DNA of 64,000 nt from an uncultured bacterium (GCA_963813815.1 CAWFAD010000008.1:16900-80899), one strand, 5' to 3'; shown: positions 10,505 through 35,572, counted from the stretch's first letter. Made by a program: numbers and translations. The notes: generated from the sequence alone by a model not told the origin.

Positions 10505-10570
10505 AATGATTCACCCTGCGGCGGGATTGTCTCGCTTTCCGCCGCTACCCTAGCATCAAACTTCTCGTAT

Positions 10571-10586
10571 ATCAAGTTCTATGCCA
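10571..10586 (-). promoter_or_regulatory. possible sigma-54 promoter of the EPS operon
   Basis: Minus strand reads TGGCATAGAACTTGAT: strong -24 box, with GA in place of GC at -12. Confidence 0.4.
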
Positions 10587-10898
10587 GCGGACGAGGCGCC
10601 GGGACGCCATCGAGGAGCCCCTGAGCGGCCGCATATCATTCAATTGTGCAATGGCCCATGCAAAAATGCGCGCCATCGCGGCCGGGCGGCCGCTCCCATG
10701 ATTGCCCATCGCTGCCTCCTCTTCCCGGATGACAAAATCGCAATTATTTCGAAATAGCTCATTCGAGGAGGGGAACCCGCACTCGGCGGCATGGGCTTAC
10801 TTATTGCGCTGTATAATAATGAGTTGCCATTCGCCGTCCGGCGCCGCCCTCCCCCCGTCCGCCCTCCTCCCCGGGCGGAATCGTTCCACCCGCGCCGG

Positions 10899-10914
10899 TG
10901 GCCTATGATTTGCA
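10899..10914 (+). promoter_or_regulatory. sigma-54 (-24/-12) promoter of the minor pilin operon
   Basis: TGGCCTATGATTTGCA = GG-N10-GC, about 40 bp before the ATG. A second GG-N10-GC lies at 10794-10807. Confidence 0.6.
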
Positions 10915-10956
10915 TGAACCGGGCGGGTGATTCATTTGAAGCGCAAGGGGCAGAAT

Positions 10957-11415
10957 ATGAAAAAGGCCGGTTTCACGCTCGTCGAGCTCATGGTGACGGT
11001 ATGCATTATCGGGCTCATCGCCGTGCTCTCGATCCCGGGGTTCACGCGCTTCCGGCAGAGCTGGAAGCTCAACGGCGAAGCGGATCAGATCGCCTCCACG
11101 ATACGTGCGGCCCGCGCCGCGGCGGTGATGAAGAGCATCAACGCGATCTTCACGTTCGACATGGACAACTCGACGTTCTTCTATTTCGAGGACAACGATC
11201 GCGACGGAACGCGCGACAGCGACGAGTACCGGAGCGCGACCTACGACCTCGATCCCGCGATCGTGTTTTCGGCGAGCACGCTACCCGGCACCACCCTCAC
11301 CTTCGGCTCGATGGGAAACACGCCGAACAGCGGCATCATAACGCTGCGCAACACGTACAACCGAACCCGGAATATCCGGGTCTACGGCGGGACCGGAAAC
11401 ATCGCCGTCGACTGA
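10957..11415 (+). CDS. GspH/FimT-family minor pilin
   Basis: Class III signal KKAG|FTLVELM; GspH-like C-terminal part. Confidence 0.88.
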   Translation: MKKAGFTLVELMVTVCIIGLIAVLSIPGFTRFRQSWKLNGEADQIASTIRAARAAAVMKSINAIFTFDMDNSTFFYFEDNDRDGTRDSDEYRSATYDLDPAIVFSASTLPGTTLTFGSMGNTPNSGIITLRNTYNRTRNIRVYGGTGNIAVD

Positions 11416-19067: not shown

Positions 19068-20594
19068 ATGAAACATAAATACCTCTACCTCGCAATCTCG
19101 GTGAGCGGGGCCTCCGTACTCGCCATCGAGATTCTCGGCACGAGAATTCTCGGTCCCTTTTACGGAGTGAGTCTCTTCCTCTGGTCGGCGCTCATCACGG
19201 TGACGCTCGCGGCGCTCGCGGCCGGATACGCCCTCGGAGGCCGATGGGCGGACCGCGGAGCGACGATGGCGAGGCTGTGCATCTTGCTCGCCGTCGCCGG
19301 CGTCTGGCTCATCGCCGTCCCGTGGATCAGGGATCCCCTGCTTCACGCAACGGAGCGGGCGGGTCTTCGCTCGGCCGTTCTTCTCTCGGCGCTCGTTCTC
19401 TTTTTTCCGCCGCTCTTGCTGCTCGGAATGGTGACCCCATACGCCGTGAAGCTCCGCACGGCGAGCCTGAGCGAGGTCGGCCGCTCGGCAGGCAACCTCT
19501 ACGCGATCTCGACCCTGGCGAGCGTCGCGGCCGCGCTCGCGACGGGGTTCTTTCTCATCCCGCATTTCGGCGTCCGGCGTCTCACGCTCGCCGTCGGGGC
19601 GATTCTCGTGGCGACGGCGCTTCCCGGGCTCGTCGGCCGCCGCTCCTCGGCGGCGGCGCGTTCCGCCGCCGCTCTCGTGCTCGTCGCGGCGGCGCTCTTC
19701 GCAGCTCGACTCGACGAAAACGCGGCCGCCCCCGAGGAGGGCCTCGTCTTCAAGACCCAAAGCGTCTACGGCGAGATCCGCGTCGTCGACGATCAGGAGA
19801 TCCGCTACCTCCTCATCGACGGCGGCATTCACACGGCGGTCGACACGTCGTTCTATTTCAACACGATCATGCAATACGCGAACGTCGTCGACCTCGCGAG
19901 ACTCTACTTCGACCGGCCGGGAAAGCTCCTCCTCGTGGGGCTCGGCGGAGGCTCGATCGCGAGGAGCTACACGCGCTCGGGATGGACGGTCGACGCGGTC
20001 GAGATCGATCCGGTCGTCGTCCGGACCGCGACGGACTATTTCGACCTTCGCCCGTCGCACGCGCGCATCTTTACGATGGACGGCCGGCGCTTTCTTTCGT
20101 CCCGCGCCGAGACCTATGAAGTGATCGTGATGGACGCATACGGATCGAGCTCCATCCCCTTTCACCTCGTGACGAAGGAGGCCTTCGCCGTCGCCGCCGG
20201 GCGGCTCGCCGACGACGGCGTGATGGTTCTCAACGTCCAGTCGGTGGGATGGAAGAGCGGGCTCGTCCGCTCCCTCGCGGCGACCCTCGAGACGGCGTTT
20301 CCGAACGTCGTCGTTATGCCCGTCATAGAGCCGCCGAACAAGGTCGGGAACGTGCTGCTATTCGCCTCGCGTCGATCCCTCGATCTCGCCGAGGCTCCTC
20401 CCGTGCCGATCGATCGCTTCGACGCCGATTACGACCGCCGGCACGCCTGGGACAACCGCTTCACACCCGTGACGACGGGGGTCCCCATTCTCACCGACGA
20501 CCGCAACCACGTCGACATCTGGAGCGAGGCCGTCAACATCGCCGAGCGCGACGAGCTGCACTCTCGTTTTGTGAAGCGGGATGTGAGCTGGTAG
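19068..20594 (+). CDS. fused MFS-like membrane domain / spermidine synthase-like methyltransferase
   Basis: TM N-terminus (EILGTRILGPFYG); GLGGG, VEIDP, DAY and LTDD motifs. Confidence 0.88.
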   Translation: MKHKYLYLAISVSGASVLAIEILGTRILGPFYGVSLFLWSALITVTLAALAAGYALGGRWADRGATMARLCILLAVAGVWLIAVPWIRDPLLHATERAGLRSAVLLSALVLFFPPLLLLGMVTPYAVKLRTASLSEVGRSAGNLYAISTLASVAAALATGFFLIPHFGVRRLTLAVGAILVATALPGLVGRRSSAAARSAAALVLVAAALFAARLDENAAAPEEGLVFKTQSVYGEIRVVDDQEIRYLLIDGGIHTAVDTSFYFNTIMQYANVVDLARLYFDRPGKLLLVGLGGGSIARSYTRSGWTVDAVEIDPVVVRTATDYFDLRPSHARIFTMDGRRFLSSRAETYEVIVMDAYGSSSIPFHLVTKEAFAVAAGRLADDGVMVLNVQSVGWKSGLVRSLAATLETAFPNVVVMPVIEPPNKVGNVLLFASRRSLDLAEAPPVPIDRFDADYDRRHAWDNRFTPVTTGVPILTDDRNHVDIWSEAVNIAERDELHSRFVKRDVSW

Positions 20595-20598
20595 GCGG

Positions 20599-20823
20599 TC
20601 AGTCCCGGTCCAACGCGCGGACTTCCCCTATTTCCTCAATCCGTACGCGATGCCCTTCGAGCTCGCCGGGCACGAGCTTCTCGTGCTGGCCGGTTTTCTT
20701 CTCGACGAAAACGAGGATGCAGGGCGTGCCGTTCTCGAGCGCGCCGACGCCGACGCCGACGACGCCGGGGATCGCCATGAGGCGATCGACGTGATCGTTC
20801 ATGACGGCCGAAATATCCCTCAT
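20599..20823 (-). CDS. 74-aa protein resembling the N-terminal domain of the adjacent Nal1-like protease
   Basis: RBS GGGAGG; LMAIPGVVGVGVG...LVFV...VPGELEGHRV...GEVRAL. Confidence 0.75.
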   Translation of the reverse strand: MRDISAVMNDHVDRLMAIPGVVGVGVGALENGTPCILVFVEKKTGQHEKLVPGELEGHRVRIEEIGEVRALDRD

Positions 20824-20845
20824 CGATTCGCCTCCCGAAGAAGAC

Positions 20846-20877
20846 GACGCCCGCCCCGGAGAACCGGGGCGGGCGTC
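20846..20877 (-). terminator. strong hairpin between the protease and the small ORF
   Basis: GACGCCCGCCCCGG-AGAA-CCGGGGCGGGCGTC. Confidence 0.6.
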
Positions 20878-20923
20878 TTACGCTGGCATCGAGCCTTGGA
20901 ATCCGTGAGATTCCAGCTCTCGA

Positions 20924-22024
20924 TTAGATACCGACCATCGTCGCCCCGTGATAGCTGAGCACGGGAGCGATCGGATTGGCGATGGCGCTCGAAGTGCTGC
21001 CCGCGAAGAGGAGTCCCACCGCGCGGGGATTCGTCGCGACATCCTCGACCAGCAGCGAGCCCGAGTCGCCGCCAGCGAGGAACGCGCTGCGTTTCTGGTA
21101 CACCATAACCTGGCCGGTGTAGCTCCGGGTGAACGCGACGCCGTTGCACTCGTCCTCGTAGCCTACGTTGACCGCCACGTTGATCGCGCTCACGTAGCTC
21201 CGGGTGAGACCCGACGTGCGTCCGCTCTTCTTGACGAGGAGCCCGACGTAAGCCTCGAGCGTCGCCGACGAGAGCACGCCGATCTCATAGATCGAGCCGT
21301 CGGTCCGCACCATGCCGGGGATGACCTGGGCAATGGCGCAGTCGACGTTGTGGCTCGTCGGATAGTAGCTCGAAAGGCTCGAGAGATTCGCCACGAAATC
21401 GGCCGAGAGCTTCTGGCAGCTCACATCGATGAGACCCGGCTGGTTGATGGGGTCGCCGAGGACCGCCACGTCCGGATCCCCCGAGCTCGCCGCGACGTCG
21501 CCGCAGAACACGTGCGAGTTGCTGAGGATGTACTGGACTCCGCCCTTCTGAACGAGGGCGCCGAGCGTGCCGCTGCAGCAGTAGTTGTTCGCGAGGTCGT
21601 TGGCGTTGCCGCCGGAGACCCCGAGCTCGATCGGACGCGGCATGCGGGCGGTGTGCGGCGTGGTCGTCGTCTTGAACGCTTTGATCTCGCCCGTGACGAA
21701 GGGCACGACCGGCACGCCGTCGAGCGTCTTGGGAACTCTCACTTTTCCGGCTTCGGATTTGAGGAACACCATGACGGCCGGCTTTCCATCAGCCGTGAGA
21801 CCGGTGCCCGTCCCAACGACTTCAGGATCCTCCATAAGGGCCGGCGTATGCTTGTTCTGGACCGCCATGACCGCGAGGGCCTCGGGACTCGCCGCCGAGA
21901 GAGTGACTCCCGTCTGATCCGACACTGGAGAAGCTGGTGTCTCCTCCTTGTCGGAGCAGCCGACTAGGCCCACGAAGGCCACGACAGCGATGGCGAGAAT
22001 CGCAAGCCGTGAATAACGCTTCAT
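20924..22024 (-). CDS. Nal1-like S1 (trypsin-fold) serine protease lipoprotein
   Basis: Lipobox LVGC; SGTLG, LSNSHV (His), VDCAIA (Asp), KSGRTSG and GDSGS (Ser) motifs. Confidence 0.85.
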   Translation of the reverse strand: MKRYSRLAILAIAVVAFVGLVGCSDKEETPASPVSDQTGVTLSAASPEALAVMAVQNKHTPALMEDPEVVGTGTGLTADGKPAVMVFLKSEAGKVRVPKTLDGVPVVPFVTGEIKAFKTTTTPHTARMPRPIELGVSGGNANDLANNYCCSGTLGALVQKGGVQYILSNSHVFCGDVAASSGDPDVAVLGDPINQPGLIDVSCQKLSADFVANLSSLSSYYPTSHNVDCAIAQVIPGMVRTDGSIYEIGVLSSATLEAYVGLLVKKSGRTSGLTRSYVSAINVAVNVGYEDECNGVAFTRSYTGQVMVYQKRSAFLAGGDSGSLLVEDVATNPRAVGLLFAGSTSSAIANPIAPVLSYHGATMVGI

Positions 22025-22144
22025 GGAAACCTCCTGTGCTGAAGGGGATGAAATGGATTTATAAAGTAGATTGTCCTCCCCGCGGTTTGCGGAGTCAATA
22101 GCATTTTTTGGCCGTTCCGCCGGGGCCCGCCGGCGCGATAACCT

Positions 22145-22174
22145 TTGCAAAACGCCGAAATCGGGGTATATTAT
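22145..22174 (+). promoter_or_regulatory. ssrA promoter
   Basis: TTGCAA followed after 16-18 nt by TATATT/TATTAT, just upstream of the tmRNA. Confidence 0.55.
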
Positions 22175-22198
22175 CTATGGTCTCACCGAGGCCTCTGT

Positions 22199-22556
22199 GG
22201 GGGCGAATGGATTCGACGGGGATGGAAGAGGCAAGGGGAGCGTGCCGAGGCGCCATCAACCTCGTAAATCAGGTGGCACAACACAACTGCCGACAACCAG
22301 TTGGCACTGGCTGCCTAGTACATAGGCAACCCGTCCGCTCCGTCTGCGCAGGCAGGGGCGGAACCCGGGCGTCGATTACTGCCGGCTAGCGTGAATCTTT
22401 GCTCAGGAGATTCACGCGAAACAAACATGAGCTAGTCTCTCGGATCTTCTGCCTGTCGAGGCTCCCCGGGACGAAACAAACTCGATAGGACACGCACGTA
22501 GCAGCCCCTCGCGGAAACATCTTCGGACGCGGGTTCGATTCCCGCCGCCTCCACCA
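22199..22556 (+). ncRNA. ssrA: tmRNA; tag reading frame ADNQLALAA* (22289-22318)
   Basis: 5' GGGGGCG...GGATTCGAC; 3' GCGGGTTCGATTCCCGC-CGCCTCC-ACCA acceptor with G.U pair; internal tag ending LAA. Confidence 0.97.
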
Positions 22557-22594
22557 TTATCAAGTTGGCACGCCACGCGCGGCGCCTCGGAAAT

Positions 22595-23773
22595 CTAGTG
22601 AAGTGTCCCCTCCAGCAGAAGATCGTCGACGTTTGTTGATTCGAGAAGTCTGAGCCCCTTCTCGCGGTCGACGACGAGCGGCATACAGCCGGGATAGCGC
22701 AGCTTGAATTGTTCCAACCCCCGAAGAGTTCTCGAAGCGCTCGACTTTGCCTCGATCGCGTATATCTTCCCTCTCAGCTCAACGACAAAGTCGACCTCGA
22801 ACTTCCCTTCTCGCCAGTAATGAACCCTTCCGCTGGAACGCAACAACGCCGCGCCGACGGCCGCCTCGAAAATCCGGCCATACCACTGAGGATTTGCGTC
22901 GACCTCTTCGGGCGATCGGAAGGCATGTACCAGAGCGTTGTTCAGCGGCAAGAGTTTCGGGCTGGAAGCCCGCGTCCTCACTTCCGAGCCGCTGTATTTG
23001 TGAAGTGTGCGAATGAGGAATGCCCCCTGCAACAGATCCAGGTAGTGCTTGATCGTGTTCACATTCCCGGTTTCCTGAAGTTGGCCCAGGAGTTTCTGGA
23101 GTGACACCTCCTGGGCTGGATATGCCATCGCAAGCTCGAACATCTGGCGGAAGAGCGCCGGCTTCTGGACTGAACTGAGGCCCAGTATGTCTTTGATGAG
23201 CACGGGTTCAATAATCGAGTCCCGCAGATACTTCTGCCATCTCGGAACGTCGTGACACAACGATGCGGCTGCCGGATATCCGCCGAACTTCAGGAACTCG
23301 TCGAGTCCCCATCCAAAAGCCTCCCTGCACTCGCCGAGATTCCAATGATCGGCAGTGATGACCTCGTATCTCCCGGCCAAGCTTTCACCGAGTCCCCGCT
23401 GAAGGGACAGGCTGGCTGATCCCAACAAGACGACTTTGAGTCTCTTGGACTCGCGGTCCTGATCGAACATGTGCTTGATAACCGAGCTCCAGTGGGGAAT
23501 CTTCTGAACTTCATCGATCACGAGAAGGACGCCATCGCCCATTCGCCTGGCCCTTTCCCAATGCGCCGTGAGCCACTCCCTGTCGGGAGTAACGATCTCA
23601 TCCGCCGTGACCATAAGCGAGGGGCCCTCCCAACGTGCGATAATTTGCTGGAGCCCCGTGGTTTTACCGACTTGCCTCGGGCCGATGACCACCTGGATGA
23701 AATTGAGCTGCTCGCGCAGCCGGGATGCCAATAGTCGAGTGAAATGCCGTTCAATTTCCTTCATAGTGGCCAT
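22595..23773 (-). CDS. AAA+ ATPase, AAA_14/DUF4143 type, with C-terminal nuclease-like motif
   Basis: GPRQVGKT, IDEVQ, LGS, ESLAGR, GGYP and EVDFV...AIEAK motifs. Confidence 0.9.
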   Translation of the reverse strand: MATMKEIERHFTRLLASRLREQLNFIQVVIGPRQVGKTTGLQQIIARWEGPSLMVTADEIVTPDREWLTAHWERARRMGDGVLLVIDEVQKIPHWSSVIKHMFDQDRESKRLKVVLLGSASLSLQRGLGESLAGRYEVITADHWNLGECREAFGWGLDEFLKFGGYPAAASLCHDVPRWQKYLRDSIIEPVLIKDILGLSSVQKPALFRQMFELAMAYPAQEVSLQKLLGQLQETGNVNTIKHYLDLLQGAFLIRTLHKYSGSEVRTRASSPKLLPLNNALVHAFRSPEEVDANPQWYGRIFEAAVGAALLRSSGRVHYWREGKFEVDFVVELRGKIYAIEAKSSASRTLRGLEQFKLRYPGCMPLVVDREKGLRLLESTNVDDLLLEGTLH

Positions 23774-23920
23774 AGCATATTCATTTTTGGTAGATTTGTC
23801 TAGTATATTTAGGAGAATAATCTACTAAACTTTGAATTATGCCGCAACAAATTGTTATTATATGAGTTATATAATTAGCACTTCTACGGAAAGCGGGCAA
23901 AAACAGGGGTGTCCCTCCGC

Positions 23921-23945
23921 TTCTTTGCAACAGTGTCCACCATTT
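23921..23945 (+). repeat. att-like repeat copy A
   Basis: TTCTTTGCAACAGTGTCCACCATTT. Confidence 0.7.
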
Positions 23946-24009
23946 TCGAGCATAAGCTTCGATTTCCATGCAACAATGTACACTGTATATCGCATGGCTG
24001 GACGACAAC

Positions 24010-24336
24010 TCACGAGACGAACCGGAAGGCCCCGAACCAGACGACAAACATGAATCCGAGCACGCAGAGAAATCCGAAGGCTATCAAAGCCGCGATTATC
24101 ACGGTGCGCCGGAACATGAGTCGCTTTGCTTCCATGTAGGTTTCCATTGCATCCTCCTTGTTGAGCGGTACAGGCGCATCTCCCGTCGTTTCCATCTTTG
24201 CGAACTCCTTGGCAAGGTCGGCGGTTTCGGGGTCACTCGCCAGGTACGATTCGACAAGCGCGCGCGTATCCGCGCTCGCCTCGTTGGCCACATAGATGGG
24301 TAGAAGATCGAGAATCACGTTTCGAGTGATCTTCAT
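24010..24336 (-). CDS. membrane anti-sigma factor (zf-HC2-like, lacking Zn ligands)
   Basis: NVILDLLPIYVANEASADTRALVESYL plus a C-terminal TM helix; directly downstream of the ECF sigma gene. Confidence 0.75.
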   Translation of the reverse strand: MKITRNVILDLLPIYVANEASADTRALVESYLASDPETADLAKEFAKMETTGDAPVPLNKEDAMETYMEAKRLMFRRTVIIAALIAFGFLCVLGFMFVVWFGAFRFVS

Positions 24337-24337
24337 T

Positions 24338-24823
24338 TCAATACACCTTCCTTTCGATACAGGCCGCAAGGATCATCTTGCGAACGCGATGCACTTTCAC
24401 TTTGGCTGATGCGAGTGTGATTTCCAAGACGCGGGCGATCTCCTCGTAAGGCATATCATGCCGCACGCGCAGGACAAAGGCCGCACGATCGATCTCCGGA
24501 AGCGTTCGCAGGAGCCTCTCAACTCTTACCAGCTCGAGCCGGGATTCGGCTCGATCTTCCGGTCCGGCCGCGGGATCCGGCAGCGTCTCATCGAGAGCGA
24601 TCTCGCGCCGGCTCTTGCGCCGCCGTTCAAGAAACGTGTTGCGAGCGATCGTCATGAGATATGCCTTGAGGGTTTCCGTGCGAATGGCGCTTCTCTTCAC
24701 CCATGCGCGAACGAACGTTTCGGAAGTGATGTCCTCCGCTTCGGCGCGCTCGCCCGCAAGCGAGAAAGCGAAGCGGTAAACCTCCGGGGCGTAGGACTCG
24801 TATAGTTCTTGAAAGCGCAGCAT
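24338..24823 (-). CDS. ECF RNA polymerase sigma factor
   Basis: AEDITSETFVRAW, YLMTIARN and YEEIARVLEITLASAKVKVHR. Confidence 0.92.
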   Translation of the reverse strand: MLRFQELYESYAPEVYRFAFSLAGERAEAEDITSETFVRAWVKRSAIRTETLKAYLMTIARNTFLERRRKSRREIALDETLPDPAAGPEDRAESRLELVRVERLLRTLPEIDRAAFVLRVRHDMPYEEIARVLEITLASAKVKVHRVRKMILAACIERKVY

Positions 24824-24957
24824 TTTTCTCCTCCGGTGATAATAGACATTTGGAGATGGAAAGTTACAAACAAATGGATGTGACATGAGGAGGGATGCGC
24901 TCACTCCGGAGCCGAGCGACAGAGATGGGGTACGGTACGATAGCGTGCAGGTGGCGT

Positions 24958-24982
24958 TTCTTTGCGAGCGTGTCCACCAATT
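24958..24982 (+). repeat. att-like repeat copy B
   Basis: TTCTTTGCGAGCGTGTCCACCAATT. Confidence 0.75.
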
Positions 24983-25005
24983 CAAATCAGACGACAACGT
25001 CAGGC

Positions 25006-25857
25006 CTACGGCCGAATCCCGGCTGATTCTCGAAAGATCGTTCGCGATACCAGCTCGGTTGCACAAGCAGTCAGCGCGAATATCGCGAGAATGATCAGGT
25101 AGATCTGCAGGGCGCTCAGGTCTCCAAAATCCCACCAGTTGTCGCGCATAAGATTCACCGCCGATGTATTCAGCACGGCATGAAAAAACATCGCTATGAA
25201 CAAACTGCCATTGCTCCATCGCCAGAGGTGACCCATGATAAATGCGATGAGAATCGTAGATATCGGATATAGCACGACAAATTGCGACCAGCTCAATCCA
25301 TTGCGGAAATCCGCAAACCTGAATGCGGGGAAATGCCAACACGCCCAAACGAGGCCGACTATGATTGCCCTGGTCACTGATCTCAAGCGGTCCTGCAAAC
25401 GAGATTGGAGAAAACCGCGCCAACCCATCTCCTCTCCCAACGGGCCTACTCCGAAAATAATCCCGCCCAGAAATGCATTCACCGGCACGAGTGCGATCAT
25501 GGTAGCGGCGATTTTCCATAGGGCGATTTTGGCCGAAATCCCCAGAACGAGATAGAATACCAGTCCGATGGCGGGCAGCAGAAAGAAGGCAGCAATATAA
25601 ACACGCCAGTTTACCTTTACGAGAATCAAGCGCTTCAGCAGACCGAGGACAGCCGCGCGCCCGCCGGTTAGGCCAGTCATAATAAGCGCAGCTGCGGTCG
25701 GGCCAAAGCTGCCTGCCAGAAGAAATCCCGCAAATCTCCCGTCGTTGATACCGACCATTCCATTAATCGATGCTATGCCCATCAACCAGATCGCCCACGA
25801 AATAGCGTAGGCAACAGCCACAAAAGCCAAGATGGACTTGATCCCTCGATCCTTCAT
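25006..25857 (-). CDS. CPBP/Abi family intramembrane metalloprotease
   Basis: GEEMGWRGF, WACWH and FHAVLN motifs; multiple TM segments. Confidence 0.92.
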   Translation of the reverse strand: MKDRGIKSILAFVAVAYAISWAIWLMGIASINGMVGINDGRFAGFLLAGSFGPTAAALIMTGLTGGRAAVLGLLKRLILVKVNWRVYIAAFFLLPAIGLVFYLVLGISAKIALWKIAATMIALVPVNAFLGGIIFGVGPLGEEMGWRGFLQSRLQDRLRSVTRAIIVGLVWACWHFPAFRFADFRNGLSWSQFVVLYPISTILIAFIMGHLWRWSNGSLFIAMFFHAVLNTSAVNLMRDNWWDFGDLSALQIYLIILAIFALTACATELVSRTIFRESAGIRP

Positions 25858-26028
25858 TGAGGGCCTCCTCAATCAAGGCGGCATCCGGCCCGTAGGAGAG
25901 TATCATCGCCGAGTGAAGTAAGGCATACCTGGACTGCGTGCATCAATACGGCACAGCGGCGCAGTTGTTTCCAGAAAAGAGCCCGCCTGGATTCGGTCTT
26001 GCATTCCAGCAGTACGTGCGGCGGTCAC

Positions 26029-26250
26029 TCAGTATCTGTCGAGTGCCCAGTTCAGCGCCTTCGCGACAGTCTTTCCCTTAACACCGATATGCCGGGCAAT
26101 AGCCTCGTTACTGAGCGCCAACCGTTTCAAATGCAACGCCTTTCCCGCGATCTGCTGATATTTTGGAGGGATCTCGACCTCCAGAAGTTCCGCTTCGAAT
26201 GTCATCTCCGCAAAGGTTCGAATTCTTTGCGGGCGTGTCCACCATTTCAA
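26029..26250 (-). pseudogene. orphan HTH-containing C-terminal module whose frame begins at att copy C
   Basis: KWWTRPQRIRTF...LSNEAIARHIGVKGKTVAKAL; the only start is a TTG abutting the core, with no clear RBS. Confidence 0.6.
26209..26247 (+). repeat. att-like repeat copy C (most complete)
   Basis: CGCAAAGGTTCGAATTCTTTGCGGGCGTGTCCACCATTT. Confidence 0.8.
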
Positions 26251-26265
26251 CTCAATTGTGTCGGA

Positions 26266-26754
26266 TCATTCTTCGCAGACCGATTTCGAGCGTTTGCGAC
26301 CCTTAATGGTCTTCAGCGCATCGGTGAGGACCTTCAGGACGAGCCTGTCTTTCTCCCTTGCCGCCGCTTCCTTGCTGGCAATGATCCGCTCCAGCTTCAG
26401 AACGAGCACTTTTGTCCGACCGAGAGGCACCTTGATCGCATGTTTCCTTTCCTCGTCGAATTCGCCCAGTCCGTCCATAGTGAGAACGATATCGAAGAGC
26501 TCGATGCCATTGCCGGCGAACATTGGCCCATTCCTCGCCGTCGGAGGAACGTAAACGCCACGAACCTCTTTCAGGGCTTTTTCAAGGCCGGGATCCGGCA
26601 GCGTGCGAAACCACAGGTCGATACCCTGAGTCACAACGGGCGCTCCCTGAAGGGCGGCGGCGGAAAGCCCCACGATCATGAACTCGACTTTCTGGCGAAC
26701 GAGCTCCTTCAGAAACTCCGCTTCCCGATCACCGAATATCAACGAATCGGCCAC
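26266..26754 (-). CDS. nucleotidyltransferase-fold protein
   Basis: IVGLSAAALQG...TQGIDLW and C-terminal IIASK...REKD, typical of this small NTase family. Confidence 0.75.
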   Translation of the reverse strand: MADSLIFGDREAEFLKELVRQKVEFMIVGLSAAALQGAPVVTQGIDLWFRTLPDPGLEKALKEVRGVYVPPTARNGPMFAGNGIELFDIVLTMDGLGEFDEERKHAIKVPLGRTKVLVLKLERIIASKEAAAREKDRLVLKVLTDALKTIKGRKRSKSVCEE

Positions 26755-27097
26755 GACGCAACGCCCTCCTCAAACGCTCGACAGGCTTCTCACTCAAGAG
26801 AAGCAGTGTATGCCTGATATTGTCTCGATCGATCCCTGGATGCAGCCTCGAGATGCGTTCCGATTCGGTGGCCAGGGATTTCATCCGTTCGGCCGGCGTA
26901 TCCGTTTCTTCGAGCAGGGCCGATACGGATATATGCAGGCGCTCCGCAATAAGGATCAGGGATAACGGGACGACGTAATCCTTGCGAGCCAGCGAATAGA
27001 ACGCATTTCGACTGACCCCCGCTTCACGCAGCATCTCTCCGATGTTCAGGCCCCTCCGGCGGCATTCGTATTCGACCTTATCCATGGAAAGCTTCAT
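26729..27097 (-). CDS. XRE-like HTH protein (putative antitoxin or autoregulator)
   Basis: LNIGEMLREAGVSRNAFYSL HTH; overlaps the NTase gene. Confidence 0.72.
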   Translation of the reverse strand: MKLSMDKVEYECRRRGLNIGEMLREAGVSRNAFYSLARKDYVVPLSLILIAERLHISVSALLEETDTPAERMKSLATESERISRLHPGIDRDNIRHTLLLLSEKPVERLRRALRRGRFVDIR

Positions 27098-27103
27098 ATA
27101 CAT

Positions 27104-27132
27104 AATGTACCACTATTTGGTACACTTGTCAA
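27104..27132 (-). promoter_or_regulatory. sigma70 promoter with palindromic operator
   Basis: TTGACA-N17-TACATT, with TGTACCA-N5-TGGTACA (27106-27124) overlapping the spacer and -10 box. Confidence 0.75.
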
Positions 27133-27161
27133 CCGAGAATAGGCCCTTGTGTGACGTTATT

Positions 27162-27263
27162 CTAACCGTTGGGTCGATGCTCGACACGCCGGAGCCAGGC
27201 AGCAGCTTTAGTCGCCGTCTTGTCTGTGATTCCGAGCCTCCTGGCGATCGCCGAGTCGGGCAT
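27162..27263 (-). pseudogene. second, shorter remnant of the att-associated HTH module
   Basis: MPDSAIARRLGITDKTATKAAAWL aligns with LSNEAIARHIGVKGKTVAKALNWA. Confidence 0.6.
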
Positions 27264-27268
27264 AGTCT

Positions 27269-28045
27269 CTATTCGCCAAAAAGAGTTTCCGGCCGCTGCT
27301 CCATCAATTCTCTCATTGCCGCCAAGAAACGCCCGGCATACGCACCGTCCAGCGGACGATGATCGAAGATCAGGGTGGCAGAAATGAATTGCCTGAAAAC
27401 ACACTGCCCCGCCGCATTCCGAACAGCCTTCTCCTGCAGGGCCCCCAGGCACAGCACGGCGATCATCGGCATCGACATTGCCGGAACACCGTTGGTGACG
27501 CCGAAGCTGCCGAGATTCGTGATGACAAAATTGCCATAACGCTTTTGAAGAAAATCTATCGATCGTGACGGGAACCTCATGGCGAGCTTCCGAATAAAGG
27601 CCGGGATGCGCATAAAGCGTTTCAGATAGAGATAGAATTCCCCTTCATCCCGCTGAATTCTTTCGACCTGCCCTCTGCTTTCCTTGACAATCTCATCCAG
27701 CCTTTTCTTGTCGGGGTTGTGCAGTACGACGTACTCCACATGGTTCTCGCTGTCGACCGGAATATTGAAGACCATCTCTTTGGCATCGACGATTTTCTTC
27801 CCATCGAACGAGGCGTAGAGAAACGGAAAATGCAGCAAGGTCTTCGCGGATGCTTTCATGAAAAGATGGGTAAGCGATATTCTGAGGGAAGCCTCACGTT
27901 TGGCATTTGCTTCGCTCCGAAGCGCCAGAAGCCTGTCCATCTCGATATCGATCGCCATCGAAACCGCCGGAACGCGTCGATTCTTGTCGAATTTCATAAT
28001 TTGAAATCTTCGAAAGAGCCGCTCTTTCTCTTCCCGTTGCACCAT
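27269..28045 (-). CDS. stand-alone 2-oxoacid dehydrogenase E2-type acyltransferase catalytic domain
   Basis: FVITNLGSFG and FDHRPLDG motifs; no lipoyl or E3-binding domain. Confidence 0.85.
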   Translation of the reverse strand: MVQREEKERLFRRFQIMKFDKNRRVPAVSMAIDIEMDRLLALRSEANAKREASLRISLTHLFMKASAKTLLHFPFLYASFDGKKIVDAKEMVFNIPVDSENHVEYVVLHNPDKKRLDEIVKESRGQVERIQRDEGEFYLYLKRFMRIPAFIRKLAMRFPSRSIDFLQKRYGNFVITNLGSFGVTNGVPAMSMPMIAVLCLGALQEKAVRNAAGQCVFRQFISATLIFDHRPLDGAYAGRFLAAMRELMEQRPETLFGE

Positions 28046-28143
28046 ACGTGTTTCTCTCTTTCGTGGAGCGATACTGATGAAAGTCAATCTTATGGGCAAT
28101 TCGATTCCGTGTCAAGGTGCCGGCGGGTTGTGCACGCGCCCCC

Positions 28144-29948
28144 CTATTTCCCTTCCTCCAACCGCTTCAGGGCGGCTTGGCCGTTCTTGTTCCCCGGATT
28201 GAGCTCGAGAGATTTTCGGTACCCTTCGATCGCGCGCTCCTTCTGCCCCACCTTCGCGAGGACCTCCCCGAGGCTGTCGTAGGCATTCCAGGAATTTGGA
28301 TAGAGCTCGACGGTCTTTTCGAACACGTAGACGGCGGCCGCGATCTCGTTCTCCTGAAGCAGCCGGTACCCGAGGTTGTTGAAGTCGGCTTCTTCGAACA
28401 CCGGGCCGTCTTTCCCGCGCCGCGCGAGGAGCTCCCGCAGCTTTGCATCGGCGGCCGGGATTCCTCCCTCGGCGAGGGACTTTCCGAGAGTGTCCGCGGC
28501 GGACCCGAGCCTTTGCTTGCGAACCGCCGTTTTCGCCCGTTCGATCTGCGGCTGCTCCCAGGGGAACATCGCCTCGACCTTTTCGCTTTCCTTCAGGATT
28601 TTCTCCGCTGCGGCGACGTCGCCGACGCCGAGATACGCCTGGGCCAGCATGGAGTAAGTGCTGGCGAATTGTGGGAAATCCTCGCGGCATGCGCGCAGAA
28701 GACCGATCGCTTCGGCGTACTGCTTGCTCCCCAAGTATTGAGTGGCCCGTTGCATTGCTTCGTCGACGCCGAAGAAGGACGCGTCGCCTCTCTTCGCGCG
28801 CGCTCCATTGAGACCGGCGACCGCCGCCTCGACGCCCTTCTCACCCGCGTCGCGCACGTACTCTTCCACAAGGGATGTCCTCAGGTTCAACAGGCTGGCG
28901 GATTCGTCCTGCGGGACGGGATTCCCTTTCTCCAGAAGCTGCAGCGCGAATTCCAGAACGCGGTCGGTCCCTGAGGCGATGTCGGCCGGCGTGTTCAGCA
29001 TGCGCAGATCGGGAGGCACGCCGACTCCTTCCCAGGAAACGCCGTTGTAATCGCTCATCACCTTGAAGGCCACCCACAGGGTCCAGCCATTCGGCATCCG
29101 ATCCGGGTATTGCGCCGAGAAGGCGCCCTCGGTGAGATCCCCCACGACGGTGACGTGGGGAAGCACGCGCATGGCCAGCACGAAGACATCGGCGCCGCTC
29201 GCGCTGAGGCGATGCGCGAGAAGGACGCTGGGCCGCGTGAACTGGACTGGACCGCCGGGCTCGACGTTGCGGTACTCCACCGGGGCCAGATCGTCGTGCT
29301 TGGGACCGTAGCGGGTCTGCGTTCGCATATAGTGTCGCTTGCGGTCGGCGAACCGATTCGCCACGAGCTCCGCCACGTTCCCCGTTCCACCCGGGTTGCC
29401 GCGCACGTCGACGATCATCCCCCGAGCGCCGGCGAGCTCCGCGATCGCCATGTCGATCGCCTGACTCGTCGGCCCGGGTCCCGCTTTGAAGTCGCCGAAA
29501 TGCATGTACCCGATCCCGTCCGAGAGCCAGCCGTAGGTGAAGCGACCCTTCAAGGTATCGGTGGCGCCGCCCTTCAAGTATTTCGACTTCACGAGATCCA
29601 GGGAGAAGTCGTCGGGCTCGCGGGCCTCCATCAATCCGCCGCAGTCGCGCCGCGTCCCGTCGGACAGGCAAACGTGCGCGTCGTTCAGGTTCCGCAGCAT
29701 GGAGAGCAGTATGCCCCACAGCTCCTCGTCGGTGGTCGCCGGGGTGACCTGCGGGCGGTATACCTTGTACAGGGCATCCCAGTCGACGTGCTTGACACCG
29801 AACTGGGCGTAGTTTCTATCGAGGCTCTTCCATACGTACTCGAAATTCAATACGGGATCGCGGGGATTTGCGCTCCCCTCGATTCTCGGCAACGGCGGCC
29901 GACGCCCAAAGGCAAGCGGCGGCAAAGACAATCCACATGACGTGCCAT
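28144..29948 (-). CDS. S41 peptidase (tricorn-C1 plus S41) with C-terminal TPRs; signal peptide out of frame
   Basis: LNDAHV, DVRGNPGG, SASGAD, EGVGVPPD and TPR (NAYDSLGE). RBS AAGGAG and signal MWIVFAAACLWASAAVA lie in shifted frames at 29885-29948. Confidence 0.85.
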
Positions 29949-30033
29949 GATCGATAGCTCCTTTCCGTATGCTCCCCAATCTTGTCAACACTCGAATGAT
30001 ACGAGAACGGAATGGAAGTTGTTGCCCGGAATA

Positions 30034-30071
30034 GCGAAGGTTCGAATTCCTCGCGAGCGTGTCCGCCATTT
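30034..30071 (+). repeat. att-like repeat copy D (candidate right border)
   Basis: GCGAAGGTTCGAATTCCTCGCGAGCGTGTCCGCCATTT. Confidence 0.75.
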
Positions 30072-30204
30072 CCTCTTGGCCGACGAATGCCCGCCGCCGG
30101 AAGCGTCCCGGAGATAACATTTTCGCTCTACCCCCGTACGGACGGTTTTGGTATCGTGACGTCGCACGGGACCGCACACGGGCTTGCGGGCAAGGAGGTC
30201 ATCG

Positions 30205-30618
30205 ATGAGGCGGATCGTCATTCTCGCCGCAGCGGCGCTGATCCTCTCCGCCGGCTGCACGAAGATAGACTATGTGGGCAAGGAGTTCCCGCCCACGGCC
30301 GACGTGGATATCTTTTTCGCGCTCGACGACGTCGACCGCGAGTACGAGGTGATGGGTCACCTGACAGCCACCGCCAACGATATAGTGAGCGCGGAGAAGA
30401 TGCAGGAGGAGATACTGAAAAAGGCCCGCGAGAAGGGCGCCGACGCTGTCGTCATCCTCGGGCTCAACCGATTCGAGACTCCCACGCCGGCGACCTGGTC
30501 CGAGACGACGGAAATAGAAGCGACCAAGGCAGGAACGAAGACCACAACGACGGGGACTTCGTCATCCGGCACGAGCGAGCAAAAGGAGATACGCGCGACC
30601 TTTCTCAAGTACCGCTGA
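30205..30618 (+). CDS. lipoprotein, unknown function
   Basis: Lipobox SAGC; KAREKGADAVVI motif; RBS AAGGAGG. Confidence 0.75.
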   Translation: MRRIVILAAAALILSAGCTKIDYVGKEFPPTADVDIFFALDDVDREYEVMGHLTATANDIVSAEKMQEEILKKAREKGADAVVILGLNRFETPTPATWSETTEIEATKAGTKTTTTGTSSSGTSEQKEIRATFLKYR

Positions 30619-30739
30619 TCGCTCGGAGCACGGAGACCGATTACGGGCCGTCGTAGGCGATGCCGCAGGGGATCGACGAGCGATTCGCTGCCGAAGCTCA
30701 GGTTGCGGTAGAAAAAGTAGGGCTCATCGTCGGCGGCCC

Positions 30740-32746
30740 TCATGGCTTTTGACAATCACGCAGCAGCACCGCGAGCTCCGGGTCGTCCGGGACCGAGGAG
30801 AGGCCGACCGTTAGCAGCCTCAGCGCGTCGTCCTTTCTCTTGTCCCGTATCAGCAGGCGGACCACCTCCGCGAGCGCTTTGCCGTTCGATCGATCGAGCT
30901 CGAGCGCGCGAGCGTAGAGGGGAAGCGCTTCGGCTACCCGGTTGGCGCGTAGCATAAGCTTCCCGAGCGCGAGCTGATACTTCGCCTCGTTTGGATTCTG
31001 GAGAATGAGCCGATTCAGAATGTCGAATGCGTCGTCGACCTCGCCGAGCTGATCGAGGGTGACCGCGAGATACCACCGGGCCGTTTCGGCGTTGGGATCG
31101 GCTGCCGCCGCCTCCCTGAAGCACGGAAGCGCCCCGGAGTAATTCCGCTGCTGAAAGCGAACGTATCCGAGCGAGTACATGAAAGTCGAAAAGAACGGCC
31201 GCTTCGATTTCCCGGCGCGCTCCTTCGCCTCGGCGAGCATGCTCTCCGCCTCCGCGTACCGCCCCTGCTTGGCGAGGGCCATGCCCGCGTAGCCGTATCC
31301 CTGCACGTGCAGTCTGTCCACGTTGGGCGGCGTTTGCCAAACGAGCAGGACGCCGCAGACGAGGACCGCGGCGGCGAGCGCGAAGCGCCTGATGTGTCCG
31401 GCCCTCCATTGCCGGTAGAGCCACTCGGCCGCGTGGCTTCCGAGCACAATGAGCGCCATGACGGCGGCAATGCGAAAGCGAGCGTTCGTGAAAAACACGA
31501 CGCTGATCGCCATATAGACGCACACGGTGCCCCACAGGGGGAAGTGAGCGCCCGGTCGGCGGAAGCACAGCAGCATGCCGAGAAGTCCAAGGGGGCCGAC
31601 GAGCCAGAACCCGATGGGCATGAAGCGAGTAACCGAGCCGTACCGCTCGGTGATGAATGCGATATCCTGATCATTCGGAATTTCGTCCCGGCCCCAAAAG
31701 AAAAGGAGCTTCCGCAGCATTCTGCCGAACGCCTCGCGGGGGTTTGCCTCGATATATCGAAACGTTTCGCGGACGTAGTAATCCGAAATCTCCGACGCCT
31801 TGAGGGAGCGGCCCTCGGCCCGCTCGGCCCTCTCGACCTGCGCCTCGTATCCGGCCACCAATTGGGTGGGATCGCCCGGAATAATCGCCGCCGTGCCGTC
31901 GGCGCGCGGATTGTTCCCGATGTAGAAATTCACTCCACCGTTCGCCGTGATCAGCACCGCATCGCGTCCCACCGCGTAGTTGCGGATGCTGACCGGAAGG
32001 ATGGACACCATGCATCCCGCGATGAAGCAGAGCGCATACAATCCGACGCTGCGCCATCGAGCGCGGTGCAGGAACGCGATCCATCCGAGGATCACTGGAG
32101 CAAAGATCAAAATATCCGGCCGCGTGACGGCCGACAGCCCGAGAAAGCCGCCGTTTACGAACCAGAGCGCGGCGCTCGGCCGGGATCGCGATCGGAGCAG
32201 CCCCCATACGAGGAGAAGCGTGAAGAAGATGATGAGAGTCGGGCTGAGCAGCTCCGCGTCGAAGTACGCGAGCGTCCCGTACAACGCGGCGGCGATTCCG
32301 GCAATGATGCCGGCCGTGCGGCCGAACGCGTTGCGGCCGATGACGAAGAGCAGGCCGCAGTTCGCCGCGCCGATTGCCGCCTGCGCAATCCGCGGGGCCC
32401 AAGGTCCCGTTCCGAAAAGCCGGTAGATCAAGCCCAGAAACATCGGATAGAGCGGCGGGCGGAAGTAGGGACCGGATACGAATGGCTCTCCCTTCGCCAA
32501 GGCCTCGCCCCATTGATGGTTATAGAGGGAATCCATCTCGGGACTCGCGAAATACGGGCTCCTGCGCAGCTGGTAGACGTAGACGAGCCTCAGCACGAAG
32601 GCGACGAACGCTATGGCGAGAATCCACTTGCCGTCCGGTCCCTGAATCGAGCGGAGGATTCTCGACGACGCGCTCGGCCGGGGCGGCGCAACGCGGCGCC
32701 CGGCTGTGTGCTTTGATGCCGTCTGCTTGGATACGCCTTCTCTCAT
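30740..32746 (-). CDS. GT-C (ArnT-like) glycosyltransferase with C-terminal TPRs
   Basis: DSLYN, RPPLYP, TRP, RNY, NFYIGNNP and ARFR motifs; TPRs. Confidence 0.85.
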   Translation of the reverse strand: MREGVSKQTASKHTAGRRVAPPRPSASSRILRSIQGPDGKWILAIAFVAFVLRLVYVYQLRRSPYFASPEMDSLYNHQWGEALAKGEPFVSGPYFRPPLYPMFLGLIYRLFGTGPWAPRIAQAAIGAANCGLLFVIGRNAFGRTAGIIAGIAAALYGTLAYFDAELLSPTLIIFFTLLLVWGLLRSRSRPSAALWFVNGGFLGLSAVTRPDILIFAPVILGWIAFLHRARWRSVGLYALCFIAGCMVSILPVSIRNYAVGRDAVLITANGGVNFYIGNNPRADGTAAIIPGDPTQLVAGYEAQVERAERAEGRSLKASEISDYYVRETFRYIEANPREAFGRMLRKLLFFWGRDEIPNDQDIAFITERYGSVTRFMPIGFWLVGPLGLLGMLLCFRRPGAHFPLWGTVCVYMAISVVFFTNARFRIAAVMALIVLGSHAAEWLYRQWRAGHIRRFALAAAVLVCGVLLVWQTPPNVDRLHVQGYGYAGMALAKQGRYAEAESMLAEAKERAGKSKRPFFSTFMYSLGYVRFQQRNYSGALPCFREAAAADPNAETARWYLAVTLDQLGEVDDAFDILNRLILQNPNEAKYQLALGKLMLRANRVAEALPLYARALELDRSNGKALAEVVRLLIRDKRKDDALRLLTVGLSSVPDDPELAVLLRDCQKP

Positions 32747-33082
32747 ACACCGGAGCTCCTGATGCGCGGCGAATCCCGCACGATCATCGAGGCGTCAGGG
32801 GTAAGCAGTATGCCCGCTCTGCTCGGCCGTGTCAAGGTGGGCACTGGTCGGGGTCGTGGGCGACTGCATCCAAAATCGCCGCCTCAATCGGGATTTCCGC
32901 TTGACCTTCCCCCACTACACTCCTCCACACAAAGGGTCAATTGCGGGACATCTCTCTAACCGCCGGTCGATGCCCGAGCCGCGAGGCGCTCCTCTAACCC
33001 GAACAAGCGGGGGTTGCACCCCGCCCGATTATGGATTAAACTGTTAGGTAATTGCTATCATTGAAAACTTCGGGAGGTTCCC

Positions 33083-34262: not shown

Positions 34263-34919
34263 ATGGCAAAGATTCTAATCCTGCTGATTGAAGACAACCG
34301 CTTTCTGCGGGAAGGCATCGCCGCCATGCTCAATAGTGAGAACGATATCGAAGTCGTCGCGCGAGCCGAAGACGGCGATGCGGTGCGTGAGCTGAAGAGC
34401 ATGAAAAAGCCCCCTGACATCATCCTCTTGGATCTTGGGCTGGAAAAGGAAAACAGCCTGAGACTGATGAACATGTTGCAGGAAGAAGCGCCGTCGGCGC
34501 GGATCATCGCCATGGATATATTCCCTGAGCAGATCGACATCGTCGAGTTCGTGAAATCCGGCGGCAGCGGCTTCATCCTCAAGAATGCCCCGTCGAAAGA
34601 TTACATTAAGACCATCAGGACCGTCGCGGCAGGTTCAAAGGTGCTTCCGCCGGCTTTGACCAATTCGCTTTTCACACAGATCATCGAATCCGCGCTCAAA
34701 ACAGGCAACGGCATCCCCAACAGCTCAATAGTTTTGACCAATCGTGAACGAGAGGTTATCGCCCTGATTTCCGAAGGCATGAGCAACAAAGAAATCGCCG
34801 AGCGGCTTCATGTCGCTACATATACCGTAAAGAGCCATATACACAATGTTCTGGAAAAGCTGTCGCTTCACACCCGGCTGCAAATAGCGGCCTTCGTCCG
34901 CAGGGAAGAATCCGAATGA
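34263..34919 (+). CDS. NarL/LuxR-family response regulator
   Basis: Receiver (IEDN, LLDLG, FILK) plus LTNREREV...SNKEIA...TVKSH. Confidence 0.93.
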   Translation: MAKILILLIEDNRFLREGIAAMLNSENDIEVVARAEDGDAVRELKSMKKPPDIILLDLGLEKENSLRLMNMLQEEAPSARIIAMDIFPEQIDIVEFVKSGGSGFILKNAPSKDYIKTIRTVAAGSKVLPPALTNSLFTQIIESALKTGNGIPNSSIVLTNREREVIALISEGMSNKEIAERLHVATYTVKSHIHNVLEKLSLHTRLQIAAFVRREESE

Positions 34920-34957
34920 CCGAATTCGGATCTTGATTTCCCATAAAGCGATACATT

Positions 34958-34982
34958 GGACTAGCTCCGGAGGACTAGCTCC
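34958..34982 (+). promoter_or_regulatory. direct repeat, possible regulator site
   Basis: GGACTAGCTCC-gga-GGACTAGCTCC in the intergenic region. Confidence 0.45.
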
Positions 34983-35137
34983 TTTTCCATCCCTTGGAGC
35001 GATTCACTCGCTGAGGGTTCCCGAGTACACTTCCTTCAAAGAACACTACACCGGACAATATTCCGAAAGGAGCGTTGATGCATTGCTGCGGAGCGGGTAA
35101 CCATTCAGCTCGGTTTCACGCCACGAAAGGGGCAGAT

Positions 35138-35572
35138 ATGTTCAAGCGAACGTCATTACTAGTTGTCGTCATGATGTGTGCCCTTGCTCATGCCGGACTG
35201 GCGGCAGAACAGGACAATGTTCAGAAATACTTCAACGACGCTGCGTGCAAAGTGAAGGCGGCGACCGATCCGTCGCAGAAGCGCGAGATTCTCGAAAACA
35301 AGATCGAGGATATGTCCAAGGCGTTGGGCATGGTTCGGAACTCGCGACTCGTTTCGCAAGCCGATCGCGCGGGCCTTGATCGTCTCGGCGCCTCCCTTCA
35401 GGAGAAACGGGACGAGCTCGCGGGTACGAACGGCTACGCGCGCGTTGCCGATGATCAACTCAACGCGTTCTCCGAATACGTCGTGCAGGACATGGAGCAG
35501 GCAGACAGGACGATAACCCTCAGCGTCGTCACGGCGCTCTTGATCATAATCATCATAATCCTTGTCGCCTGA
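35138..35572 (+). CDS. secreted helical protein with C-terminal hydrophobic anchor
   Basis: Signal peptide; ends TLSVVTALLIIIIIILVA. Confidence 0.7.
   Translation: MFKRTSLLVVVMMCALAHAGLAAEQDNVQKYFNDAACKVKAATDPSQKREILENKIEDMSKALGMVRNSRLVSQADRAGLDRLGASLQEKRDELAGTNGYARVADDQLNAFSEYVVQDMEQADRTITLSVVTALLIIIIIILVA

Follow-up and report, generated by a model that had tools for sequence, protein, structure and literature searches.

Organization of the ssrA-anchored array

The DNA analysed here is a stretch of 64,000 nucleotides from an uncultured bacterium (GCA_963813815.1 CAWFAD010000008.1:16900-80899; hereafter the window, on contig C8 of an assembly of 16 contigs and 2.53 Mb with a completeness of 90.8%), in which the transfer-messenger RNA (tmRNA) gene ssrA is followed by a row of small gene cassettes bounded by repeats of the tmRNA 3' end. 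The repeats are attributed below to a family of large serine recombinases (LSRs), and the sequence preceding each repeat core is called the P arm. The ssrA gene was located at 22199-22556 (plus strand) by ARAGORN and by Rfam (RF00023, 187 bits) and encodes the tag ADNQLALAA. Its 3' end, TCCACCA (22550-22556), is repeated on the plus strand at 23936-23942, 24973-24979 and 26238-26244, and as TCCGCCA at 30062-30068. These four recurrences lie at the coordinates given in the original prediction, which had read the locus, from sequence alone, as an integron-like array of cargo blocks without an integrase.

Arm and core together form a 22-nt pattern, TTCYTYGCNNNNGTGTCCRCCA, which at up to two mismatches matches exactly four sites in the window (23921, 24958, 26223 and 30047; plus strand), where 0.04 are expected and none of 100 shuffles reaches four. 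The same four are the only matches at 0-2 mismatches in the whole assembly, and an nhmmer profile of 28 sites recovers them at E values of 1.5e-18 to 3.8e-7, with the next match at 0.26. The motif is not scattered through the genome; all four copies lie downstream of ssrA and in its orientation. As predicted, two of them carry an extended arm, with AAGGTTCGAA directly ahead of 26223 and 30047. Between the tmRNA and the repeats only TCCACCA is common (7 nt, sometimes plus T). The GC content is 0.46-0.58 across 22.4-28.1 kb compared with about 0.65 elsewhere; a further dip to about 0.50 is seen at 34400-35200, some 4 kb to the right of the array. The main open reading frames (ORFs) all lie on the minus strand, antisense to ssrA, and the gaps from stop codon to core are 38, 67, 26 and 21 nt, in agreement with the predicted arrangement of about 20-70 bp.

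Among 61 related genomes, the 22-mer occurs at no more than one mismatch in 19, while a reversed control pattern gives a single match in total. Nine copies from seven genomes of several genera share the identical reading TTCTTTGCGACAGTGTCCACCA, and in relatives with ssrA on the same contig many copies are found 1.4-5 kb downstream of it in the same orientation.

Five cassettes, all with minus-strand genes, make up the array (related genomes are denoted by G, contigs by C and loci by L). At junction A (22550-22575, plus strand) the tmRNA end passes directly into the left end of cassette 1, TTATCAAGTTGGCAC..., so that the position adjoining ssrA is held by an ATPase gene. This cassette (22557-23942) comprises an AAA_14 and DUF4143 ATPase (22595-23773; Pfam), which matches the PADLOC candidate defence family PDC-S01 (E 4.8e-139), and a truncated P arm with core, site B (23921-23942, plus strand), which has neither the outer GGTTCGAAT motif nor a recombinase tail fragment; it is 93% identical to G003:C24 and 90% to G005:C318. 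Cassette 2 (23943-24979) carries a putative anti-sigma factor (24010-24342) and an extracytoplasmic function (ECF) sigma factor (24338-24823; Pfam Sigma70_r2/r4_2) and ends in the truncated P arm and core of site C (24958-24979, plus strand); it is 89% identical to G013:C259, where the tail fragment is partly kept. Cassette 3 (24980-26244) contains a CPBP/Rce1-like intramembrane protease (25006-25857; Pfam), followed by an LSR C-terminal tail fragment (26029-26244, minus strand; tblastn match to LSR residues 466-533, with an ORF having its own ATG at 26029-26205) and by the full P arm and core of site D (arm from about 26183, 22-mer 26223-26244, plus strand; nhmmer 67.4 bits).

Cassette 4a (26245-27261) holds two small ORFs, one of 162 aa for which no family was found (26266-26754) and one of 124 aa with weak AbiEi/RHH-like matches (26729-27103), together with the 3' remnant of another tail fragment (27165-27263, minus strand) whose arm and core are deleted. 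It is 96% identical to G005:C318, where it stands behind a D-like site and has a different deletion endpoint. Cassette 4b (27262-30068), which has no tail fragment, encodes a protein with a 2-oxoacid dehydrogenase-type acyltransferase domain (27269-28048; Pfam, NCBIfam) and an S41 peptidase with TPR repeats (28144-29949; Pfam, NCBIfam) of host-like GC content (0.65), and closes with site E (22-mer 30047-30068, plus strand), a P arm and the core TCCGCCA with AAGGTTCGAA in front. The four blocks of the original prediction do have their boundaries at the cores. However, since the tail fragment at 27165-27263 has lost arm and core, the block of 3.8 kb is two cassettes fused by deletion; a Logan contig from run X5 shows a P arm and core joined exactly to position 27262, with a shorter side of only 22 nt. 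Altogether the window comprises five cassettes without an LSR; two fragments of an LSR tail remain, two of the arms are truncated and one junction has been deleted.

On the window's contig, Pfam detected neither a Resolvase nor a Phage_integrase domain (transposases were not searched for), the sole matches in the assembly lying on C16 and C11, and no main part of a cognate LSR was found in the assembly. The claim that an integrase is absent holds to this extent, although the fragments at 26029-26244 and 27165-27263 are themselves C-terminal pieces of an integrase. The LSR on C16 was considered as the cognate enzyme and rejected: it is frameshifted, only 23% identical over the catalytic domain and unrelated to the sites. 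At this locus (G000:C16:312650-316087, L084) an apparent frameshift splits the gene into ORFs of 310 and 257 aa, next to a 336-aa ORF that by eye reads as replication-initiator-like, and it is probably another decayed integrative element.

The P arm as half of an attachment site within a recombinase gene

The shared arm is real but longer than had been predicted. Alignment of 28 sites showed that conservation to the left of the core spans about 62 nt (26183-26244 in the window), and that arm and core belong to a recombinase gene fragment on the minus strand. On the opposite strand they encode WWTxSQRIRTF, the start of a C-terminal tail of about 75 aa, in an open frame that begins WWTLSQRIRTFAEIP... 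and runs for about 75 codons, in most copies without a start codon. In a congeneric genome (G003:C24), one stop-free frame of 544 codons leads from the LSR through a palindromic site into the tail, with a partial Resolvase domain, recombinase, zinc-ribbon and coiled-coil regions preceding the site. The site is a near-perfect 48-bp palindrome, GGTTCGAATTCTTTGCGACGGTG-TC-CACCATCGCAAAGAATTCGAACC. Because the frame crosses this palindrome, the arm constitutes the left half of an attP located within the recombinase gene.

A degenerate 48-nt pattern retrieved 17 metagenome loci with the palindromic site, and in five of them a continuous tblastn match to the LSR crosses it. The scan of viral contigs gave no locus, and none of the 17 metagenome loci has terminal overlaps, so no circular form is shown by them. 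On one metagenome contig (L211, 9262-10515), only about 580 nt separate ssrA from a full palindromic site and an LSR remnant, the shortest such 'cassette' seen.

The full-length relative P0002 matches Resolvase (4.1e-29), Recombinase (1.4e-22) and Zn_ribbon_recom (3e-8). Its best NCBIfam match is CcrB (E 1.7e-32), at 112.8 bits against a cut-off of 900, and it is therefore not a CcrB equivalog. The tail is conserved across phyla (21 sequences), and structure prediction gave a small helical domain with a pLDDT of 85.9. Pfam helix-turn-helix matches remained under their cut-offs (HTH_23, 22.9 bits against 24.6), a profile search of PDB sequences gave weak matches (best E 3.7e-4), and Foldseek with the tail model returned no match at E <= 0.001, its top rows being helix-turn-helix DNA-binding domains. 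These results hint weakly that the tail may be a helix-turn-helix domain.

The geometry of the half-sites is consistent with their assignment. The motif GGTTCGA begins 23 nt ahead of the central TC in the P arm; in the tmRNA, where it lies in the T-loop, the distance is 18 nt, and the same 23/18-nt spacing is found in the left halves of loci from Actinomycetota, Acidobacteriota and Gemmatimonadota. Rutherford 2013 (PMC3783163) showed that in attB the 9-bp zinc-ribbon motif of LSR half-sites is nearer the crossover than in attP, by 5 bp, and the displacement of GGTTCGA between arm and tmRNA matches this shift. The resemblance of the arm to a tRNA then follows from a binding motif common to arm and target. 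The last 25 nt or so of ssrA read GGTTCGATTCCCGCCGCC-TC-CACCA and are proposed to act as the left half and centre of attB, with the central TC, judging from the symmetry of the palindrome, as the probable crossover point.

Linkage of the recombinase family to tmRNA and tRNA 3' ends

The original prediction looked to a recombinase gene beside the motif. This assembly has no cognate one, but in relatives the LSR is linked to the site and to ssrA. The LSR main part of both G038 and G040 runs into the ssrA 3' end, the match ending at the WW codons; in G035, G037 and G015 remnants of 43-56 aa from the LSR C-terminal region abut ssrA; and in G045 an LSR containing a stop is found just past a palindromic site that lies 2.5 kb downstream of ssrA. 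The right attP half, TCGCAAAGAATTCGAACC, follows TCCACCA immediately in G015, G035 and G038. Sites, gene fragments, half-site geometry and this linkage are direct observations.

At E <= 1e-20 the family matched 536 database proteins, for 120 of which the matches were listed. Among these 120, 93 end in a translation of the antisense t(m)RNA 3' end (WWRRRESNP type) and two carry the tail; the other 25 are mostly, by eye, variants of the WWRRRESNP type or end at WW. Across 80 LSR loci in GTDB species genomes from many phyla, the gene overlaps a tmRNA 3' end in 40 and a tRNA 3' end in 18 (Ala, Met, Glu and Ser), while five are cut off by a contig end and the remaining 17 show none of these. In 13 such loci a P arm precedes an upstream tail fragment; 11 of these read GGTTCGAATTCTTTGCG or a variant by one or two letters, and two tRNA-Glu loci have a different but analogous arm (GGTGCGAATCAAT...). 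The family was detected in Krumholzibacteriia, Acidobacteriota, Actinomycetota, Gemmatimonadota, Myxococcota, Arenicellales, Omnitrophota and others. Members at the 3' ends of tRNA-Ala, -Met, -Glu and -Ser genes were seen at L145, L159-L162, L166, L172-L173, L177, L179-L180, L183-L185, L191 and L193-L196, and the tRNA-targeting members come from Arenicellales, Holophagae, Omnitrophota and other groups.

Some tmRNA 3' ends have features of their own. A hybrid segment, GGTTCGATTCCCGCC-GTGTCCACCA, joins a tmRNA T-arm to the inner P arm at L066 (G003:C4, about 3097-3150), L115 (G015:C20, 6401-6425) and L118 (G005:C10, 1451-1475); in G003 it is located 49 nt beyond the true end of the tmRNA, where ARAGORN predicts two tmRNAs that overlap. 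This segment may be a recombinant or gene-converted site. In L078 (G005:C318, 1-70) and L067 (G007:C201, about 2090-2120) the tmRNA gene ends in ...GCCTCCA followed by A/T-rich sequence, and therefore the CCA end is not encoded there, unlike in the window.

Cassette reshuffling and erosion

A comparison of the regions downstream of ssrA among relatives bears out the predicted delimitation of the blocks by recombination-site scars: blocks of the window recur elsewhere in relatives, broken at the core, and the ATPase and CPBP cassettes are repositioned. The ATPase cassette follows a full P arm (...TCCACCAgtatctggttggcac) in G003:C24 and follows ssrA (...TCCACCAttatcaagttggcac) in the window. The CPBP cassette, 90% identical, comes directly after ssrA in G009 and after site C in the window. 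Logan contigs show alternative cassette neighbours in other populations, which is not excision in this one, and stretches that they do not cover carry no weight. On one from run X1, a P arm leads, over six letters unlike the window, into the core and the ATPase cassette's left end, and contigs of other samples show further combinations, including the ATPase cassette followed by a right attP half; several of these joints have short sides of 22-28 nt.

Erosion of the array is equally visible. Arms B and C have no outer motif and no tail fragment, core E carries a mutation, a deletion has removed the junction at 27262, and no recombinase is left, which makes eroded remnants of related islands, one of the two options raised in the original prediction, the best fit. 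The junction at 27262 has been deleted differently in G005 and in the window, and G013 retains a longer tail remnant beside the ECF cassette. Between genomes, the truncated site of the ATPase cassette is only about 77-82% identical over 22 nt (by eye) compared with 90-93% for the cassette itself. The gene to the right of site E was tried as evidence of an empty site and set aside: in G032 and G024 it is indeed close to ssrA, though inverted and on the opposite side.

Two loci in relatives add to the variety of arrangements. A complete 4.1-Mb genome carries a second array (L073, G023:C1:610000-629999, at 8358-11358 and 13421-14461), in which two sites flank an S41/TPR peptidase and a displaced tmRNA 3' fragment has a right attP half. 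This array lies 1.14 Mb from ssrA, beside a 346-aa ORF read by eye as an insertion sequence transposase, and may have been moved by rearrangement. The 6.4-kb contig L106 (G007:C215) ends on both sides within the same CPBP gene (1-568 and 5554-6396, about 455 nt of overlap), which points to a CPBP-pepT segment that is either duplicated in tandem or circular or variable in form; the contig yielded no att site.

Accretion model and alternative explanations

The window repeats are attR-type scars of an LSR family that targets ssrA, and the array is LSR-less and partly eroded. We consider it likely, with a probability of about 0.8, that 22550-30068 is an accretion array of small integrative elements that used a CcrB-like LSR at the ssrA 3' end. 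In such elements, attP would be a near-palindrome of about 48 bp, GGTTCGAATTCTTTGCGnnnGTG-TC-CACCATCGCAAAGAATTCGAACC, in the 3' part of the LSR gene at the codons ...GSNSLR|WW|TxSQRIRTF..., and attB would be the tmRNA end, whose T-loop GGTTCGATT would provide the distal recombinase-binding motif 5 bp nearer the centre than in attP. Integration would split the LSR gene: the main part would come to end beside ssrA and read into it, and the last 75 codons or so, the putative helix-turn-helix tail, would remain attached to the left attP arm and core, at the element's distal end. With repeated insertion by ssrA and subsequent loss of the LSR main parts, units made of cargo, tail fragment, arm and core would result. 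The catalysis, the insertion order and the manner in which the LSR parts were lost are our reconstruction from these remains. The five units of the window are probably immobile in this genome.

Several observations weigh against this account. An LSR main part is present in only one of 22 site-bounded intervals (four in the window and 18 in relatives; 1.0-7.5 kb). The left ends of the cassettes are clean after CACCA and T-rich, closer to the native region downstream of ssrA than to LSR pseudogenes, and no decaying LSR pseudogenes are seen there; neither the rarity of main parts nor the clean ends are predicted by simple random decay of complete elements. Canonical LSRs recombine attP with attB only, and for elements to insert one after another the right half of attB must therefore be tolerant; no clear distal motif was recognized in the right halves of the apparently empty native attB sites. 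Homologues of the cargo genes are also found in relatives at loci without any site, and CPBP with pepT may be a native neighbour of ssrA rather than cargo. Some arrays are distant from the full ssrA, as in G023 (0.62 Mb against 1.76 Mb for ssrA); these carry displaced tmRNA 3' fragments. Given the completeness of the assembly, an LSR could also be present and unassembled. Finally, recombination was not directly observed, the public-run contigs showing alternative junctions in other populations only. We infer that LSR-less cassettes may have arisen through pseudo-site deletion by the LSR, mobilisation in trans, or selection against an antisense gene by ssrA.

The 21 of 22 intervals without an LSR main part, many of just 1.0-1.8 kb, could also be cassettes of a live integron-like system, non-autonomous units that a cognate LSR, supplied in trans by another element or by an unassembled region of the genome, excises and inserts at the ssrA-proximal site. 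The clean cassette ends and the variation in cassette order among genomes and metagenome contigs would suit this explanation, as would the precedent of SCC (staphylococcal cassette chromosome) elements that have no ccr genes; McMurdie 2011 (PMC3146451) moreover proposed cis-mobilisable islands for 15 LSR-less ssrA islands. A system still in motion is nonetheless unlikely in this genome: the assembly has no cognate LSR, the outer binding motif is missing from two of four arms, one junction is deleted and one core mutated, the truncated site of the ATPase cassette differs more between genomes than the cassette does, and the alternative joints all come from contigs of other populations, not from excision reads of this one. 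The reshuffling could in principle also reflect homologous recombination between the repeats of about 250 bp formed by tail fragment and arm, or transfer of the whole ssrA region from strain to strain, the sites being only old scars. The repeats are 72-96% identical over 70-220 nt, which is sufficient for unequal crossing-over; their homology stops at the core, so that products would seem broken there; and ordinary deletions are present, the G005 junction looking microhomology-like by eye. Yet the junctions of the ssrA end with a cassette share only TCCACCA with the P-arm sites (ATPase here against G003, CPBP in G009 against here), which is too short for homologous exchange, and the explanation is very improbable.

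Even less credible is a role of the repeats as tRNA- or terminator-like RNAs or regulatory elements for the antisense cargo, or as Xer/dif-module-like sites recognized by a tyrosine recombinase. The arm sequence is able to fold into a T-arm-like hairpin, GCAAAGG-TTCGAAT-TCTTTGC, and every repeat is intergenic, but an Rfam search of 20000-33000 at E up to 1 matched the tmRNA alone, and the arm is in frame with the LSR gene and there forms half of a palindrome. The genome's only tyrosine recombinase match, the Phage_integrase domain on C11, lies on another contig than the array. Accretion by LSR-bearing elements remains the preferred explanation.

Comparison with known systems and significance

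SCC islands offer one of the two closest precedents. In staphylococci, CcrAB or CcrC inserts them at the 3' end of the single-copy essential gene rlmH/orfX, and they accrete in tandem, including ccr-less pseudo-SCC units between att repeats. The LSR family described here resembles them in its best NCBIfam match, CcrB, in insertion at the 3' end of a gene and in tandem accretion, whereas the target is the tmRNA instead of rlmH, one recombinase is seen in place of a CcrA/CcrB pair, attP lies within the recombinase gene, and the score of 112.8 bits is far from the CcrB cut-off of 900.

The other precedent is found in Dehalococcoides. McMurdie 2011 (PMC3146451) describes tandem ssrA islands with a CcrB-like serine recombinase, DsiB, whose 3' end always overlaps attL, and a conserved non-ssrA motif beside each repeat; 15 of the islands have no integration module, and the authors suggested that the recombinase gene is perhaps intact only when the island is circular or has a neighbouring island next to it. 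The window array is of the same kind as these islands: both are tandem, lie downstream of ssrA and are bounded by repeats of its 3' end, and both systems place a reverse-strand CcrB-like LSR next to ssrA (here in G038, G040, G035, G037, G015 and 40 of the 80 GTDB loci). The Dehalococcoides repeat measures 20 bp with an inferred insertion in the T-loop, compared with 7 nt (TCCACCA) and an inferred centre at the acceptor/CCA end here. Those islands are large and carry a six-gene module (DsiB, DsiA, RecF-like, ParB, Mom and a large protein), which the cassettes here, with 1.0-3.8 kb and one to three genes, cannot hold. The displaced 3' piece here encodes a conserved tail of about 75 aa, the host belongs to another phylum, and the likeness to DsiB is one of description only.

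Integrons share with the array the one-directional row of small cassettes, each with its own recombination site, anchored at a single position of the chromosome. Taken strictly, the name proposed in the original prediction does not apply, since the sites are LSR half-sites rather than attC or attI and there is no platform gene. Integrons have the IntI tyrosine recombinase, attI and a common promoter, all missing here; attC sites are folded single strands, whereas the sites here are double-strand LSR half-sites overlapping coding sequence; and the array cassettes, unlike those of integrons, carry their own upstream regions. In SSV-type archaeal integrases (PMC8371274), attP likewise lies within the integrase gene, which is split on integration into a tRNA gene. 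These are tyrosine recombinases, inactive when split, whereas here only the C-terminal tail is removed. Tycheposons (10.1101/2020.12.28.424599) are cargo elements that accumulate at tRNA and tmRNA genes; 27 of 937 carry an LSR, and unlike the LSR array here they are mostly tyrosine-recombinase elements of Prochlorococcus. A 2014 database paper stated that serine recombinases were not known to target tRNA/tmRNA-type genes, and in a literature search of limited scope no further paper came up that describes a serine recombinase whose gene spans its own attP. Beyond these precedents, what is notable is the cross-phylum LSR family, its split C-terminal tail and the unexplained clean mini-cassettes.

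A wider reading, tentative and more probably wrong than right, would make the family a cross-phylum, LSR-based counterpart of integrons on tmRNA and tRNA genes, with ssrA as a capture platform. Integration would then swap the C-terminal DNA-binding tail of the LSR for residues encoded antisense to the t(m)RNA, and this replacement could switch the activity or direction of the enzyme according to its integration state. The clean LSR-less mini-cassettes, with a P arm on the left and an attB-like end on the right, might be made and moved in trans, for example by excision-type attL x attR or pseudo-site recombination.

A puzzling 'integrase-less' array is in this way explained by a concrete enzyme family and site architecture. 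The LSR family is widespread, and its gene spans its own attachment site and is aimed at the 3' ends of tmRNA and tRNA genes. Considering that the half-sites are highly conserved and the target universal, these enzymes could be candidate integration tools, and the split C-terminal tail represents a testable route by which recombinase activity may be coupled to the integration state.

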